DNA of 64,000 bases. Origin: a virus (Duplodnaviria > Caudoviricetes). Below the pieces are notes generated by a model that did no database searches, was not told the DNA's origin, and worked only from the letters and a program-made list of their open reading frames with translations. The stretch is taken from IMG/VR virus record IMGVR_UViG_3300028591_000071. The stretch is one strand, 5' to 3'. Of the stretch, positions 92 through 27,582 are shown piece after piece. The position numbers and the translations under genes are program-made. How positions within the stretch are numbered: the first letter of the stretch is position 1; every line of letters starts with the position of its first letter.

Positions 92-106
92 CAAATATCG
101 TGCCAA
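92..106 (-). promoter_or_regulatory. sigma54-like -24/-12 motif TTGGCACGATATTTG
   Basis: Identical copies at 22543 and 25606; variants at 20179 and 25465. Confidence 0.55.
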
Positions 107-10076: not shown

Positions 10077-10193
10077 TCGGAACAAAAGGAATCGAACCTC
10101 TTCTAGCGGCTCCCATAGCAAAAACGAAAATTGCTGTAGATAACCTTGCCAGATTACACGATAAACGCTGTGCTACCATTACACTATATTCCG
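10077..10193 (-). ncRNA. tRNA-Pro(TGG)-derived RNA with hairpin+ACAGCAA insert in the anticodon stem
   Basis: C1:G72/A73 acceptor, D and T arms; removing the insert restores GCGGC-TATGGGA-GCCGC. Confidence 0.7.
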
Positions 10194-14751: not shown

Positions 14752-14913
14752 TGGGCGATAATGGAGTCGAACCATTGACCCCCTGCTTGTGTTGGTAGAT
14801 TACGCTTCGAACGTAAACAACATAAGCGCGTTTTCTCCCGTTCTACCAAAAACCCGTCACAGTGGGTTAATCTGTAGAAGGCAGGTGCTCTGAACCAACT
14901 GAGCTAATCGCCC
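14752..14913 (-). tRNA. tRNA-Val(TAC) with 87-nt insert (14791-14877)
   Basis: Exons join as CCTGC-CTT^ACAA-GCAGG. Confidence 0.85.
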
Positions 14914-15090: not shown

Positions 15091-15267
15091 CGGGCACAGT
15101 AGGACTCGAACCTACAACCTACGGATTAGGCATACTATTCAGAATCGAACTGAAATCACTACTGCCACGGCTTCGGGTCCTCGCCATTAGACGATAGTAT
15201 GCTTAAGTTCATTTTCGGCGAACTATTCCTTATACAGTCCGTTGCTCTACCATTGAGCTATGTGCCC
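15091..15267 (-). tRNA. tRNA-Asn(GTT) with 105-nt insert (15129-15233)
   Basis: Exons join as ACGGA-CTGT^TAA-TCCGT, G73. Confidence 0.85.
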
Positions 15268-17800: not shown

Positions 17801-17918
17801 CAACCATGACAGGACTCGAACCTGCGACACGCGGATTATCAGTCAATAAACATTGCTGTAAATTTCCATAACCTGTAAACATAAAAGTACGCCGCTCTAC
17901 CCTCTGAGCTACATGGTC
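17801..17918 (-). ncRNA. tRNA(GAT)-derived RNA with 45-nt hairpin+ACAGCAA insert in the anticodon stem
   Basis: Removing 17845-17889 restores GCGGA-CTGATAA-TCCGC. Confidence 0.7.
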
Positions 17919-20160: not shown

Positions 20161-20199
20161 ATTCCGATATATTATCTACAAATATCGTACCAAACTTTG

Positions 20200-22519: not shown

Positions 22520-22557
22520 TCAATGAACTTCTTTTTATACTTCAAATATCGTGCCAA
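22520..22557 (-). promoter_or_regulatory. sigma54-like motif followed by boxA-like AGTTCATTGA
   Basis: Directly upstream of the rRNA-mimic RNA. Confidence 0.55.
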
Positions 22558-23422: not shown

Positions 23423-23597
23423 TGACCCCTGCGGGGCTCGAACCCGCGACCCCGACATTAGAACCGTTAACGGGACTTGCACCCGTGCCTCACCTGTTTC
23501 CCAAGTGTTTCCCACTGCTCGAATTCTAACGGTTTGGTTCGTTACGGTGAACCACTCCTTATAAAGTGTCGTGCTCTACCAACTGAGCTAAGAGGTC
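23423..23597 (-). tRNA. tRNA-Lys(TTT) with 102-nt insert (23461-23562)
   Basis: Exons join as CGACA-CTTT^TAA-TGTCG. Confidence 0.85.
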
Positions 23598-24983: not shown

Positions 24984-24994
24984 TTATAAATTTG

Positions 24995-25068
24995 AGTATG
25001 TGGCAGGATTCGAACCTGCGAATGGAGGGGTTGCGGCCCTCTGCGTTAGACCACTTCACCACACATAC
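24995..25068 (-). tRNA. tRNA-Cys(GCA)
   Basis: GAGGG-CCGCAAC-CCCTC (C33), U73. Confidence 0.9.
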
Positions 25069-25086: not shown

Positions 25087-25161
25087 TGGCAGGAGTAGAA
25101 AGACTCGAACTCTCATCAAAGGTTTTGGAGACCCTTATGCTAACCATTACACCATACTCCT
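25087..25161 (-). tRNA. tRNA-Trp(CCA)
   Basis: Loop CTCCAAA, G73, encoded CCA. Confidence 0.93.
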
Positions 25162-25325: not shown

Positions 25326-25365
25326 GTTTTGACAGTTTTTGGCATGCCACTGACAAACCGACAGG

Positions 25366-25441
25366 TACTGGGGACGGGACTCGAACCCGCATTTACCGAC
25401 TTGAAAGGCCGATTACCTCAATCCAATTAGTAGACCCCAGC
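25366..25441 (-). tRNA. tRNA-Glu(TTC), second copy
   Basis: TCGGC-CTTTCAA-GTCGG. Confidence 0.9.
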
Positions 25442-25629
25442 ATTTTATATTTCAATCAACTCTTCAAAAACCATGCCAAACTAAAAACTGGTCCCTACCA
25501 TTCGCCAGTGGTCATTGCAGGCCAACTCTTGTTCCCAGAGTGCATTGCAGCACTAACATATCTTTGCAGACTTTTCGGGACCTGTTTATTACGGTTCTTA
25601 TATATCAAATATCGTGCCAAACTTAAAAT

Positions 25630-25676
25630 AAAAAAACCTCTGATTTTGTTTTTGATTGGGAAACTTGTCAGAGGTT
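25630..25676 (-). terminator. attenuator terminator
   Basis: AACCTCTGA/TCAGAGGTT stem running into a U7 tract. Confidence 0.7.
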
Positions 25677-25733
25677 GGGAATATGTTGTGGTTAGAAACC
25701 TATGTGGTGCGTTTTAATCGTCCTGCTACTCGC

Positions 25734-25865
25734 TCAACTATTCCGCCTCTGCAAAAAGGGCTTTTCAATTCTACCTTCTGATGCTACGAGACATGCCCAA
25801 CCGCGATAGTTTTTATCACTATCGTGCCTTTGGGTAAAGATATTTGTAAACTGCATCGAAGTCAT
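25734..25865 (-). CDS. 43-aa leader peptide containing all 20 amino acids
   Basis: MTSMQFTNIFTQRHDSDKNYRGWACLVASEGRIEKPFLQRRNS*; AGAGGA upstream; 3' end overlaps the antiterminator strand. Confidence 0.65.
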   Translation of the reverse strand: MTSMQFTNIFTQRHDSDKNYRGWACLVASEGRIEKPFLQRRNS

Positions 25866-25969
25866 AAGTCCTCTTTGTTATTATTTTAGATTTCTGCTTT
25901 TAATTCACATATAAATATAACATTTTCGAGAAAAAATTACTTTTTTACCTCAAAAATGTTAAAAATTTG

Positions 25970-26473
25970 TGCCAGATTCGGGATTCGAACCCGAGAAGCC
26001 CCACATGTGGGGGTCGTACTCCGTAGGGTTCCGTGGTTACCACGGGCCTTCGCGTCGCTCCGACATAATAAAGACAAAAGAACAGGACTCCTGACTACCT
26101 GCAAATCCTAATCCAAAGCGCGTTATTCAGCCACACTCACAACCGTTAGCTACTCGATTGCTTAACGAGTGGGAGGAATGCTTACCTCCAAGCGGATACA
26201 GCCATCATGAGCCTACTACGATTTGTCCGCTTCTTACGACCCTCACGGTTGGCCAACCGTGGGTGTTTCAGCCTTACGCTTCTTCAGACCTCTAACCGCC
26301 CCCGCCGCTTTTCAGCGGACGGATGTGTACCTTACGGGCAGGCTACCCGTTGTTCGGTCATCTTCGTCTTTATTGTAGTTACAAAGAACTCCCGTGATGT
26401 TTAGCGTCCACCACGACGACGGAATCCTAAACCACTTGGTGATATTTAAAGTCGCTACCAAGACGACTTGTCT
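25970..26473 (-). ncRNA. candidate ~500-nt structured RNA ending in a tRNA-like T arm
   Basis: Long-range stem AATAAAGACGAAGA/TCTTTTGTCTTTATT; 3' TCGGG-TTCGAAT-CCCGA. Confidence 0.55.
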
Positions 26474-26537
26474 AATGGTAAATTTGCCTTCTTTTCTATA
26501 AATATATATTAACTTTTACTAAAAATCAAATATTTTT

Positions 26538-26753: not shown

Positions 26754-26772
26754 AATATATTCTAAAAATTTG

Positions 26773-26845
26773 TGGTACATACAGGACTTGAACCCGTGCT
26801 TATCGGTTTTAGAGACCGTCGTGCAAACCGCTACACCAATGTACC
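26773..26845 (-). tRNA. amber suppressor tRNA(CTA)
   Basis: GGTACAT/ATGTACC, CGGT-CTCTAAA-ACCG. Confidence 0.9.
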
Positions 26846-26882: not shown

Positions 26883-27179
26883 TTACTTAACAGTCTGTAA
26901 GTTCTTAAACAGTTCCCCCGAATCGTCCCTGCACGCAAGAGCGGTAATTGAGTTATTCAAATCGGGCTCTTTGAAGACCGAGTATGAAACTCCCATCTTT
27001 GAAAGGCGTGAGGCCCATCGGTCAACATCGGCGTACAGGTAAATCAGGAATTCGTTGTTCCAAGTCTGATTTGGGTTTTCAAGCATCCATTGTGCGAGTG
27101 CGTGGCCACCCTGAACACAGCCATATATCGGATTAAGCTTTTTGTTCACAAGGACATACAATCGCTTCGATGTGTTCAT
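26883..27179 (-). CDS. peptidyl-tRNA hydrolase, Pth2-like
   Basis: LYVLV..L...Y..VQGGHA...FKEPDLNNSITALA. Confidence 0.75.
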   Translation of the reverse strand: MNTSKRLYVLVNKKLNPIYGCVQGGHALAQWMLENPNQTWNNEFLIYLYADVDRWASRLSKMGVSYSVFKEPDLNNSITALACRDDSGELFKNLQTVK

Positions 27180-27582
27180 AGTCAAATTTTTTGATTTTCT
27201 GCCCCCAAAAGTTCTCTTTCTCTTCATATGGCAATTTATAACCGTACTGTTCCAAGTACTTATTTATTTCGCTCAGATAAAGGCACAGAGGGTGCTTTCC
27301 CCTAAGTTCCAAAGGAACATATGCAAAACGGTCATCATCTCCCATAATGGGCTTTGCTGCAGATTCCGTTACTTCAAATGGCTTTCCCCTCATGAGGCCA
27401 TACGCTGCGTACATCGCTCTAAGGGTTTCCTTATTTGACCTTACATATTCCGCAGCCACCAATGGGTGGACTGTCGCATTTTCAGGACGGCCATTAACGG
27501 TCTTTCTCTGTGGCTTTAATTCTTTCTGCTCTTTTTCTAACTTGGCAATTTCCTGCCTGAATTCTTTAATTTTCTCGTTCAT
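27133..27582 (-). CDS. hypothetical protein upstream of the Pth2-like gene
   Basis: ORF 149 aa. Confidence 0.75.
   Translation of the reverse strand: MNEKIKEFRQEIAKLEKEQKELKPQRKTVNGRPENATVHPLVAAEYVRSNKETLRAMYAAYGLMRGKPFEVTESAAKPIMGDDDRFAYVPLELRGKHPLCLYLSEINKYLEQYGYKLPYEEKENFWGQKIKKFDYEHIEAIVCPCEQKA

Follow-up and report, generated by a model that had tools for sequence, protein, structure and literature searches.

A pan-amino-acid leader and a candidate ribosome-dependent transcription attenuator bordering the tRNA arrays of rumen and gut megaphages

Organization of the locus

The window, a stretch of 64,000 nucleotides, comes from a giant rumen phage with a block of approximately 40 tRNA genes. 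Along its minus strand, a short open reading frame (ORF) is followed by a conserved core sequence, a predicted intrinsic terminator and tRNA genes, in the following order:

26845–26772, minus strand: suppressor tRNA(CTA), upstream of the leader on the same strand
26480–25965, minus strand: structured RNA of approximately 500 nt, upstream of the leader on the same strand
25910–25920, minus strand: promoter-like box TTATATTTATA (putative promoter), which precedes the leader ATG by about 45 nt
25734–25865, minus strand: leader ORF, 43 sense codons and TGA, containing all 20 amino acids; a frameshifted short form of the 50–52-codon leader of the family
25734–25736, minus strand: leader stop codon TGA, directly after the last codons that form strand A (below)
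25682–25706, minus strand: core CACATAGGTTTCTAACCACAACATA with the mini-hairpin GGTT-TCT-AACC, between the stop codon and the terminator
25630–25676, minus strand: intrinsic terminator (AACCTCTGA, 24-nt loop, TCAGAGGTT, T7), predicted from the hairpin and its covariation
25606–25619, minus strand: sigma54-type −24/−12 motif TGGCACGATATTTG (TGGCAC-type), 11 nt past the T tract
25465–25478, minus strand: second sigma54-type motif TGGCATGGTTTTTG (TGGCAC-type), 24 nt before tRNA-Glu
25364–25441, minus strand: tRNA-Glu(TTC), first gene of the downstream tRNA array, which extends to about 8832

An earlier note on this DNA had placed a leader-peptide attenuator at the head of the tRNA array. Approximately 41 tRNA genes and a tmRNA do lie downstream of the element, but the suppressor tRNA and the 500-nt RNA precede it. 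The array of the window includes intron-bearing tRNAs with uncertain anticodons, and its tRNA set is near-complete.

With the conserved 25-nt core as the query, 58 distinct homologous elements were retrieved, and synteny yielded one more. Approximately 60 relatives, from rumen and gut megaphage contigs, carry the same combination of short ORF, terminator and tRNA array, and a same-strand array follows the element in every member with enough downstream sequence. In two of them (L056 and L099), the first tRNA begins 33–48 nt past the T tract with no promoter motif between. No match to the element was obtained in a blastn search of GenBank phages, and nothing in Rfam reached the gathering threshold; at E ≤ 10, the only match was the terminator-like TEG147, at 22.6 bits against a gathering score of 56.1. 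We found no paper and no Rfam, Pfam or PHROG family that describes the element. Generic terminator and promoter scans missed it because the terminator loop, at 24 nt, exceeds 8 nt. In the window, the region has a fold z-score of only −1.97.

Promoter-like motifs

A (G)TATATTTATA box lies 20–57 nt upstream of the leader ATG in most subfamilies, with a T-rich stretch before it, and the same box is found ahead of the upstream 500-nt RNA (26507–26497). The sigma54-like motifs at 25606 and 25465, which the earlier note had raised as possible independent starts, are real: the window contains five sigma54-type motifs, all on the minus strand, versus 0.12 expected. Across the family, such a motif occurs 10–40 nt past the T tract in most members and is absent in six, with more inside the array. 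With predicted promoters directly behind the terminator in the majority of members, transcription of the array does not hinge on read-through alone, and read-through may add little to tRNA output.

A covarying terminator and a competing helix

In the window, the 5′ arm of the terminator (AACCTCTGA, 25676–25668) pairs with a 3′ arm (TCAGAGGTT, 25643–25635) that runs into a tract of seven Ts (25636–25630). A hairpin of 9–12 bp followed by 6–8 U is present in 44 of the 45 unique members examined, and the stems fall into seven types with compensatory changes. In one alignment (A2), 89% of cells are paired and four of the ten pairs show compensatory changes; none of 500 shuffles reached the observed score, and slid controls were 26–57% paired. 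The loops range from 11 to 29 nt across the family, lengths that make the efficiency of termination uncertain.

The 5′ arm of the terminator is part of a longer strand that has a second potential partner at the end of the leader ORF. The segments involved are as follows:

25774–25790, minus strand: segment 1, CUCGUAGCAUCAGAAGG, which pairs with strand A in the terminator conformer of the window (constrained folds)
25739–25751, minus strand: strand A, CAGAGG-C-GGAATA, the 5′ strand of the antiterminator, formed by the last five codons of the ORF
25668–25683, minus strand: switch strand T5, TATTCC-CAA-CCTCTGA, which pairs with either strand A or the 3′ arm of the terminator (T3)

The complementarity that the earlier note had described between the last codons of the ORF and the terminator 5′ arm was confirmed from the sequence: CAGAGG (25751–25746) and GGAATA (25744–25739) are complementary to TATTCC-CAA-CCTCTG (25683–25669), and the A:T5 duplex has a calculated energy of −16.2 kcal/mol. 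The further claim that the two pairings are mutually exclusive holds for one half of the helix in the window, CAGAGG:CCUCUG, but not for the other, as GGAAUA:UAUUCC is compatible with the terminator.

Across the family, strand A lies within the last 6–15 or so codons of the leader. A MAFFT alignment (A1) placed it out of register between subfamilies, and the antiterminator was therefore tested by comparing cognate with non-cognate duplexes rather than by column counts. The A strands, of six types, change in concert with the terminator arm: of the 720 possible permutations, the cognate assignment scores best. The A/T5 pairs that change together are CAGAGG/CCUCUG, UAAGAGG/CCUCUUA, UAGGAG/CUCCUA, ACUGGAGG/CCUCCAGU and UGGUGG/CCACCA. 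When transcripts were folded up to T5 only, the A:T5 helix formed in most of the members listed. On this comparative evidence, the terminator hairpin is real and covarying, and the strand at the end of the ORF covaries with it.

Folding of both conformers under constraints gave −32.0 kcal/mol for the terminator and −29.0 kcal/mol for the antiterminator, which indicates that the window can switch, in line with the check that the earlier note had proposed. Pairing of segment 1 with strand A, of the classical 1:2 type, occurs in the window but shows no evident conservation among relatives; if dominant, it would limit sensing in the window to codons about 20–33, rather than any codon. In a simple equilibrium model of the window, the T5:T3 pairing has a probability of 0.61 without a ribosome; masking by a ribosome at the stop codon raises it to 0.86, whereas masking at codon 10 lowers it to 0.04 and favours the antiterminator. 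The proposal that a ribosome at the stop codon leads to termination is supported by the model for the window, but not for the long-tailed relatives (L102, L085, L073, L053 and L080), in which a ribosome at the stop codon leaves strand A uncovered and the equilibrium model predicts no switch. These members would need a kinetic or steric argument for switching.

The leader ORF in the window

The composition that had been reported for the leader is correct. The 20th amino-acid kind is reached at codon 36, and the ORF uses 32 distinct sense codons, including four for Arg (AGG, CGC, AGA and CGG), three for Ser (TCG, AGT and TCA), three for Thr (ACT, ACA and ACC) and both codons each for Lys, Gln and Asn. 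In this single sequence, all-20 composition is unremarkable: 4 of the 511 window ORFs of at least 36 codons equal the leader in containing all 20 within 36 codons, and 6 of the 290 small ORFs of the window hold all 20. The composition of the window ORF alone is therefore not significant and nothing was rested on it; it takes the whole family of relatives for the features to become significant.

Within the ORF lies a hairpin, P1 (25796–25834, minus strand; codons 11–24), a candidate pause or synchronizing hairpin. The best local hairpin falls at codons 10–24 or thereabouts in 22 of 26 representatives, with differing stem sequences and a mean z-score of only −1.3, and the support for the hairpin is moderate. 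Decoding of TAG as a sense codon was considered and rejected: table 11 yields intact genes throughout the window, and since the stop codon of the leader is TGA, recoding does not affect it.

An open frame with a drifting peptide and a conserved composition

Homologous ORFs of 40–54 codons that begin with ATG are found in all of the elements with enough sequence, amounting to 41 unique variants in ten subfamilies, and a peptide search added 45 variants. In the leader frame there are no in-frame stops, versus 3.5–5.3 per ORF length in the other frames. The sequence upstream of the ATG is A-rich, with a weak GG motif in some members. The pN/pS ratio of the leader peptide is mostly 0.3–1.1; it is about 1 among L053, L088 and L069, and 0.1–0.35 in some close pairs. 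A frameshifted C terminus persists in four sequences, among them the window, L078 and L108, and the element is retained in each. Shared peptide motifs are weak (an N-terminal M-x-x-M, a middle N-G-Y-R-G, and a late P and G). Seven representative leaders had no Pfam match and only two PHROG matches, at E = 0.17–0.27, and all 47 database homologues of the leader are unnamed or annotated as ‘hypothetical protein’, without Pfam domains.

The earlier note had suggested that related phages should conserve the composition of the leader and not its sequence, and this is the pattern that was found. The leaders contain a mean of 19.2 amino-acid kinds, and 54% contain all 20. By comparison, the all-20 rate is 0.6–3.6% in random peptides, real-protein segments, N termini and 818 other small ORFs, and 0.6–7.8% in composition-matched open shuffles; the out-of-frame readings gave 0 of 39 and 5 of 39. 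A Fisher test on the ten subfamily medians gave p = 0.001 for diversity, or 0.003 without the discovery subfamily. Nearly all of the diversity is held by the stretch before strand A, which spans 33–43 codons (mostly 36–38, about 37) and contains a mean of 19.07 kinds (p = 1 × 10−7 over ten subfamilies; 1.5 × 10−6 without the subfamily of the window). No leader has a run of any codon; instead, about 19–20 kinds are spread over about 37 codons. The rare residues W, C and H occur at positions that differ between subfamilies. The all-20 property is not strict: V, H or E is missing from entire subfamilies, and the L059 leader is limited to 14 kinds. As judged from these patterns, the leader ORF is under selection, and its peptide sequence matters little and is weakly constrained, while the composition is conserved.

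A near-invariant core between the stop codon and the terminator

The most conserved part of the element by far is the 25-nt core, of which the earlier note made no mention. It occurs as a single copy in the window. The core is identical in 58 of 58 unique members, all of which were retrieved with 17–20 nt of the core itself. Among the four members that were retrieved by the peptide alone, it is exact in three and has one loop change in the fourth. In L022, the core is diverged yet recognisable and the hairpin is retained; used as a query, the L022 core matched no contig but its own. The core is unchanged where the ORF, spacer and terminator have all diverged. Its apical part is CACATAGGTTTCTAACC, and one segment, CAACATATTCC, is the 3′ strand of a helix with GGAATAGTTG.

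A coding role for the core was rejected, as the distance from stop codon to core falls in all three phases among members; in the relatives without the frameshift, this distance is 17–22 nt. A host origin was likewise rejected: a search of 185,579 species genomes for an exact 19-nt match to the core or its complement returned one chance-level match only, and E. coli genomes contained none. The core is absent from GenBank phages and also from Lak-B1, a 735-kb phage and a complete 554-kb IMG/VR phage, and is thus not a general feature of Lak phages. Within the 64-kb window, potential trans partners of the core amounted only to chance-level 9–10-mers. A separate search with the pattern ACCTCTGANAAGTTTCC returned mostly unrelated coding sequence. 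A pure leader-peptide model does not need the core and does not account for it. The core probably has a further role, for example in pausing, in protein binding or in processing, and it suggests another reader, either protein or RNA.

Comparison with known systems

Like the trpL, hisL, pheL, thrL, leuL and ilvL attenuators, the element combines a short leader ORF with an intrinsic terminator before the genes that would be regulated. As in these amino-acid-operon attenuators, the 5′ strand of the antiterminator lies at or near the end of the ORF, where the position of the ribosome would decide the fold, and the window shares with them a four-segment 1:2, 2:3 and 3:4 layout; its hairpin within the ORF might act as a pause hairpin. 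Classical leaders contain runs of a single regulatory amino acid, or of three at the most, and control the corresponding biosynthetic operon (PMC1183508). By contrast, the phage leader precedes tRNA genes, and it is the broad amino-acid coverage in place of a codon run that sets the element apart from classical leader-peptide attenuators. Classical attenuators also have nothing like the near-invariant 25-nt core, and there is no sequence similarity; no Rfam leader family matches the element, either at the gathering threshold or at E ≤ 10.

The closest systems in logic are bmrB–bmrCD and related antibiotic-sensing leaders such as that of msrD, attenuators that answer a general slowing of translation rather than the shortage of one amino acid. 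In Bacillus subtilis, the bmrB leader comprises a small ORF and three alternative stem-loops; induction requires translation of bmrB, and rare codons influence the decision (PMC4191407). Leaders of this type sense ribosome-targeting drugs and control bacterial resistance genes, whereas the phage element precedes tRNAs, and the sequences are unrelated. The abstract of that study mentions no selection for complete amino-acid coverage. A kinetic race between ribosome and polymerase, rather than a single stalled codon, is also the basis of pyrBI and pyrE control in enteric bacteria. There, however, the ORF runs through the terminator and a close ribosome blocks termination, whereas in the phage element the core lies beyond the end of the ORF and a ribosome that arrives in time is predicted to promote termination.

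T-box riboswitches, like the proposed element, switch between terminator and antiterminator according to tRNA charging and control genes of the translation apparatus. A T-box, however, binds one uncharged tRNA through a specifier codon and the T-box bulge, with no translation, whereas the phage element conserves an ORF; the element has no T-box match in Rfam at the gathering threshold or at E ≤ 10, and inspection by eye found no UGGN bulge in the core. The lambda nut site (boxA and boxB) and the rrn boxA resemble the core by layout alone: a short conserved stretch that includes a small hairpin (4 bp in the core) comes before a terminator and before genes for stable RNAs. Nut sites have neither a helix that competes with a terminator arm nor a translated ORF, unlike the phage element, and we identified no N-like or Nus-recruiting protein for the core. 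We know of no experimentally established case of leader-peptide attenuation in the Bacteroidota, the presumed hosts. In B. thetaiotaomicron, leader-peptide small ORFs have been noted as candidates only (PMC7366714).

A model for the element and its alternatives

Large phages carry tens of tRNA genes, and debate has centred on whether these match the codon usage of the phage or allow escape from tRNA-cleaving defences. To our knowledge, essentially nothing is known of how this tRNA supply is regulated. Sequence comparison establishes the leader ORF and its amino-acid diversity, the terminator and the pairing that competes with it, and the location of the element ahead of the tRNA array. We give about an even chance to the reading that the element, which in this clade of megaphages from rumen and gut borders the array on its upstream side, attenuates transcription in a ribosome-dependent manner by means of a pan-amino-acid leader. 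To this extent the attenuator interpretation of the earlier note is partly supported by the comparative data.

In the proposed mechanism, the promoter-like TATATTTATA box would start a transcript of approximately 270 nt. A ribosome would decode approximately 37 codons containing every, or nearly every, amino acid, and would then meet strand A. Approximately 70 nt further on lies T5, the 5′ arm of the intrinsic terminator, with which strand A can pair; this pairing is shown by covariation and is presumed to form during transcription. A ribosome that is on or just past strand A when T5 and its 3′ partner emerge would leave T5 free, the terminator would form and transcription would stop at about 25630. 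A ribosome delayed by scarcity of any one charged tRNA, or by a general impairment of translation, would let A:T5 form, and the polymerase would continue into the tRNA genes. Such a device would serve as a feedback or alarm, with more phage tRNA made in response to slow decoding; translation of the leader, its coupling to termination and control of the array are all inferred from the sequence. The element probably measures how well translation runs before spare tRNAs are made. More tentative, and in our estimate somewhat short of an even chance, is the stronger proposal that the leader is a pan-amino-acid ‘test message’, in which the decoding time over the track of approximately 37 codons gates transcription into the array of approximately 40 genes and the shortage or destruction of any one tRNA, through starvation, codon-usage mismatch or host anticodon nucleases, switches on the spare set. 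Any connection with defence nucleases that cleave tRNAs is speculative.

The conservation of the core raises an alternative, which we consider unlikely, that the element is a factor-dependent riboregulator or nut-like site. A phage or host protein, or an RNA (for example, a tRNA), would bind the core in the nascent transcript and either choose between A:T5 and T5:T3 or make the polymerase resistant to the terminator, with translation of the ORF secondary, for instance in clearing or timing the structure. The constancy of the core where ORF, spacer and terminator have diverged, its persistence in the peptide-only retrievals (three exact and one with a single change) and the retained hairpin in L022 all fit this explanation, as does its position in the antiterminator loop just upstream of the terminator, where textbook nut boxB and T-box elements also lie. 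However, a bound factor leaves unexplained the constant length of the ORF up to strand A, the open frame with a relaxed peptide and the near-complete set of amino acids; moreover, no T-box sequence or Rfam match, no complement of the core in the 64-kb window beyond chance 9–10-mers and no candidate binding protein were found, and the CAACATATTCC part of the core is already explained by its helix with GGAATAGTTG. A trans-acting RNA seems more doubtful still, and we rate it as quite improbable: the terminated leader of approximately 270 nt, or a processed 3′ piece of approximately 90 nt from core to terminator, would act as a dual-function or attenuator-derived small RNA, with the single-stranded core as a seed against a conserved host or phage RNA. 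The layout resembles that of a small RNA, in that an invariant stretch of approximately 25 nt lies immediately 5′ of the terminator hairpin, and trans-acting small RNAs derived from attenuators are known, such as rnTrpL (PMC6614838). Against it stand the genome searches, in which the exact 19-nt core or its complement gave the one chance-level match among 185,579 species genomes and the core gave none in E. coli genomes, the lack of a partner in the window, and the properties of the ORF, which a small RNA alone does not explain. Such an RNA can coexist with attenuation.

The ORF itself could simply be a gene for a small protein, equipped with a promoter and a terminator of its own, whose product of 43–52 residues acts during infection. 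The terminator would then end the transcript before the sigma54-type tRNA promoters, and the complementarity at the end of the ORF would be a 3′-end structure that influences the stability of the mRNA. The weakly conserved peptide motifs, the low pN/pS in some close pairs (0.1–0.35), the labelling of the products as hypothetical proteins by gene callers and the promoter motif right after the terminator in most members are all as expected of such a gene. We nevertheless regard it as rather unlikely: between more distant members, pN/pS is near 1 and the frame is still open; four sequences, the window among them, have had the C terminus replaced through a frameshift and still keep the element; the shared ‘motifs’ fall on the RNA elements P1 and strand A; and the rare residues shift position. 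In addition, three-way covariation among A, T5 and T3 is unexpected for a plain terminator, and no Pfam or PHROG family was found.

If the test-message reading is true, the element would be an attenuator selected to monitor the whole aminoacyl-tRNA pool and, at the same time, a circuit for a phage tRNA array, neither of which we found described. It would offer a concrete and testable mechanism by which tRNA genes are turned up when decoding slows for any reason, and would extend leader-peptide attenuation from single amino acids to the whole pool, to phages and to the Bacteroidota. The near-invariant core is a second and separate puzzle, and may mark a new interaction of RNA with a protein or with RNA polymerase. 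With approximately 100 naturally occurring variants, terminators of seven types and a frameshift series that arose in nature, the family constitutes a ready mutational data set.

A short ORF overlapping an alternative to the terminator

The element ahead of the tRNA array occupies positions 25865-25630 on the minus strand of the window. It comprises the following features:

25865-25734, minus strand, leader ORF of 43 sense codons and a TGA stop
25751-25739, minus strand, CAGAGG-C-GGAATA at the ORF end (contains strand A)
25706-25682, minus strand, near-invariant 25-nt core
25683-25669, minus strand, TATTCC-CAA-CCTCTG
25676-25630, minus strand, hairpin AACCTCTGA / TCAGAGGTT (arms T5 and T3), then seven T

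The ORF contains all 20 amino acids by codon 36 and 32 different sense codons, exactly as the earlier note had stated. The complementarity of CAGAGG-C-GGAATA to TATTCC-CAA-CCTCTG was confirmed in the sequence, as was the position of CCTCTG within the 5′ arm of the hairpin. The mutually exclusive geometry proposed in that note was only partly upheld: it holds for the CAGAGG:CCUCUG half, whereas GGAAUA:UAUUCC coexists with the terminator in the minimum-free-energy fold. The two conformers have energies of −32.0 kcal/mol (terminator) and −29.0 kcal/mol (antiterminator). All 20 amino acids within 36 codons are found in 4 of the 511 ORFs of the same window, and the fold z-score of the element is −1.97. 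Taken alone, the ORF and fold features of the window are weak evidence.

A family of related elements

The nearest relative, locus L003, was reached through a neighbouring gene (71% protein identity). It carries a syntenic 47-codon ORF with no detectable DNA similarity to that of the window, and the stretch just 3′ of the ORF (window 25706-25627) is 91% identical over 82 nt. Exact-match searches with 17–28 nt of this conserved stretch yielded 6 and 14 stretches of viral contigs and 58 of metagenomes, giving 58 unique sequences, mostly from rumen and gut samples, on contigs of up to 364 kb. Synteny alone revealed one extra member, L022, in which the core has diverged. When 5.8 billion proteins were searched with a peptide profile, 47 matched, all unnamed and lacking Pfam domains; 45 were new variants. 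The element had no match in Rfam, in Pfam or PHROGs, or in GenBank phages (Lak-B1 and the 735-kb phage among them); 185,579 species genomes gave none but one chance-level hit, and the literature searched gave no description of it.

The members share an order of parts. A (G)TATATTTATA box lies 20–57 nt upstream of the ATG, which opens a leader ORF of 40–54 codons. In 22 of 26 representatives a hairpin, with differing stem sequences, forms within the ORF at codons ~10–24. The purine-rich strand A, starting 33–43 codons (mostly 36–38) after the ATG, fills the last 6–15 codons. The core follows 12–38 nt after the stop codon, and 3′ of it come T5, a loop of 11–29 nt, T3 and 6–8 U. Most members have a sigma54-type TGGCACG-N4-TTG motif 10–40 nt past the terminator. 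One locus, L068 (1145-1250 of Ga0256405_10166107), retains its 52-codon all-20 leader and its core intact; the terminator loop, 3′ arm and U tract are deleted and the T5 strand is joined directly to the sigma54-type motif. This is either a natural variant lacking the terminator or an artefact of assembly.

Composition is conserved where sequence is not

The expectation that relatives would keep the composition of the leader and not its sequence was borne out. Among 39 unique leaders no longer than 54 residues, the mean is 19.2 different amino acids; all 20 are present in 54% of them and at least 18 in 95%. All 20 are reached by 0.4–3.6% of random peptides of phage composition, 0.6–2.7% of real-protein segments and N-termini from the same loci, and 1.0% of 818 other small ORFs of equal length (mean 16.1 kinds). 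Open-frame shuffles of each ORF's own nucleotides average 14.4–18.0 kinds, with 0.6–7.8% reaching 20, and the leaders read out of frame reach 20 in 0 of 39 and 5 of 39 cases. The medians of all ten subfamilies exceed the null means (Fisher test, p = 0.001). Because the element was noticed for this very property, the window's own subfamily was left out of a second test (p = 0.003). The signal is more pronounced 5′ of strand A, where the ORF averages 19.07 kinds in ~37 codons (p = 1e-7; p = 1.5e-6 without the window's subfamily), and the tail past strand A adds almost no diversity. The rare residues W, C and H occupy alignment positions that differ between subfamilies. There are exceptions: V is usually absent in one subfamily and H often in another, L056, L099 and L052 lack E and H, and L059 has 14 kinds only.

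In-frame stops are absent from the chosen frame in ten subfamilies, and the other two frames average 3.5–5.3 over the same stretch; the product of per-subfamily Poisson probabilities is ~4e-20, before allowing for the 1-in-3 choice of frame. Inside subfamilies, pN/pS is mostly 0.3–1.1. In L053, L088 and L069 up to half of sites differ with pN/pS ~1, and each has 51 open codons. A one-base frameshift in the window, L076, L078 and L108 changes the tail from ...SRGGIVETSMREVDE to ...LQRRNS; the stop, otherwise 17 nt upstream of the core, then lies 36 nt upstream of it. The short form has lasted, given the considerable divergence of L108 from the window (pS 0.33). These observations suggest that translation is selected, and the peptide sequence much less so.

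All leaders of subfamily G5 retrieved with the core (L060, L054, L074, L079, L091, L109 and others) end in TAG; the peptide-retrieved L112 ends in TAA. Were TAG suppressed late in infection, a ribosome would pass the G5 core and, in most of these loci, stop at a TAA right after the T5 arm, which would be expected to alter the switch. The survey for the upstream tRNA(CTA) covered subfamilies other than G5, in members of which it was seen. The genes of the window are intact under table 11.

Strand A and the terminator co-vary

The terminator stem occurs in seven sequence types across the family. In alignment A2, 89% of cells pair, and in 4 of 10 base pairs both partners have changed. The observed score was not attained in any of 500 shuffles, and a shift of the partner by 1–3 columns lowers pairing to 26–57%. 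Strand A co-varies with T5.

Strand A and T5 in six types
Strand A CAGAGG, T5 CCUCUG
Strand A UAAGAGG, T5 CCUCUUA
Strand A UAGGAG, T5 CUCCUA
Strand A ACUGGAGG, T5 CCUCCAGU
Strand A UGGUGG, T5 CCACCA
Strand A GGAGUGA, T5 UCACCUCC (bulged)

The true assignment has the best total duplex energy of the 720 permutations of these types; single shuffle tests of A:T5 are weaker, 0–17% of shuffles being equally good. When transcripts ending at T5 were folded, the A:T5 helix formed in most of those members whose folds were listed. The effect of a ribosome was modelled crudely, at equilibrium, by masking 30 nt.

Predicted pairing of T5 in the window
No ribosome: P(T5 with T3) 0.61, P(T5 with A) 0.22
30 nt masked at the stop codon: P(T5 with T3) 0.86, P(T5 with A) 0.00
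30 nt masked at codon 10: P(T5 with T3) 0.04, P(T5 with A) 0.62

In L108, L056, L052, L061 and L091, where the stop is close to A, the model switches as in the window. In long-tailed members a mask at the stop produces no switch in this equilibrium model; in such members a ribosome would need to exert its effect as it crosses A, or by steric exclusion.

A possible race between ribosome and polymerase

The simplest model to use every conserved feature except the core is a leader-peptide attenuator that works as a race, and we give it about an even chance of being right. A ribosome arriving at A in time would leave T5 free for the terminator; with a late or absent ribosome, T5 would be captured by A and polymerase would continue into the tRNA genes. 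The near-constant ~37-codon track, near-complete amino-acid coverage and weak peptide constraint fit a device slowed by any shortage of charged tRNA. That the element senses the whole tRNA pool is nevertheless a tentative reading, which we would sooner doubt than adopt; in the window, a 1:2-type pairing could restrict sensing to codons ~20–33. The attenuator reading of the earlier note is supported as to architecture and conserved composition across relatives, and we infer the sensing mechanism and its target.

Two features complicate the race model. The core, CACATAGGTTTCTAACCACAACATA, is superfluous to it. Members retrieved with part of this sequence all carry it unchanged, including the eight flanking positions outside the shortest search pattern; in peptide-only members it is exact in three of four, with one loop change in the other, and the diverged core of L022 keeps the 4-bp hairpin. 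At its 3′ end, CAACATATTCC is paired with GGAATAGTTG from the end of the ORF; the model gives the apical CACATAGGTTTCTAACC no role. The core may act as a pause signal or an sRNA seed, or be a site of protein binding (nut-like) or of processing. The second feature is a set of sigma54-type −24/−12 motifs (TGGYAYG-N3-TTTG), five in the window against 0.12 expected, including the two near 25606 and 25465 noted earlier:

92-105, minus strand
20179-20192, minus strand
22543-22556, minus strand
25465-25478, minus strand
25606-25619, minus strand

They are oriented like the tRNA array, recur inside it, and in several cases lie 20–35 nt upstream of an RNA gene. Should they act as promoters, read-through would be just one of two ways of expressing the tRNAs, and may count mainly early in infection or in members without the motif, such as L056 and L099.

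In form, the element is closest to attenuators of the trp/his class (PMC1183508). In logic, the closest described systems are antibiotic-sensing leaders such as bmrB-bmrCD, in which induction requires that a small ORF with alternative stem-loops be translated, and is affected by rare codons (PMC4191407). The element differs from both in composition, in its phage and tRNA context and in the core.

The tRNA array and neighbouring features

The giant phage of the window is akin to Prevotella Lak megaphages (weak DNA matches). ARAGORN found 35 tRNA genes on the minus strand, and Rfam further intron-bearing ones.

~8.8 to 26.8 kb, minus strand, tRNA genes and tmRNA (ARAGORN, Rfam)
10077-10193, 14752-14913, 15091-15267, 17801-17918 and 23423-23597, minus strand, interrupted tRNA genes (Rfam)
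25087-25161 and 24994-25068, same strand as the array, tRNA-Trp(CCA) and tRNA-Cys(GCA)
25965-26480, minus strand, GC-rich, ORF-free structured RNA of ~500 nt, directly upstream of the leader
26507-26497, minus strand, TATATTTATA box ahead of this RNA, the same as before the leader
26772-26845, minus strand, suppressor-type tRNA
26883-27227, minus strand, 114-residue ORF

A same-strand tRNA array lies 3′ of the element in every member with enough sequence, its first tRNA 33–2100 nt away. The element marks the upstream edge of the main array, because the 3 kb upstream usually hold nothing but an amber-suppressor tRNA, 0.9–2.3 kb off. Across many loci the Trp/Cys pair very often comes first; these tRNAs decode two of the rarest amino acids, which are yet almost always present in leaders. 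An uncharacterised 81-residue ORF of subfamily G4 (L003:8831-9076; homologue L115:869-1114) begins ~34 nt 3′ of the U tract with no promoter motif between, and would be the first gene expressed there by read-through. The five interrupted tRNA genes (matches of 117–177 nt) were missed or shortened by the default ARAGORN run; their insertions measure ~45–105 nt, and their anticodons (ARAGORN intron mode) are uncertain.

The ~500-nt RNA has a tRNA-like T arm and an acceptor-like 3′ end. Parts are kept at 71–77% identity in Prevotella phage Lak-B1, the 735-kb phage LR756501 and L022, and in subfamilies G1, G4 and G9 its 3′ end, too, lies shortly before the leader. Its sole Rfam match, to manA RNA, is weak and stays below the threshold (22.1 bits; gathering score 55.2; E = 0.0037). 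The 114-residue ORF recurs at 27–71% identity in 19 viral loci. The suppressor-type tRNA directly 3′ of it has the anticodon CTA in the window, L003, L005, L006, L008, L010, L018, L022, L025 and L026, and TCA in L007; L011, L014 and L015 instead have a TTA tRNA ~750 nt upstream of the ORF.
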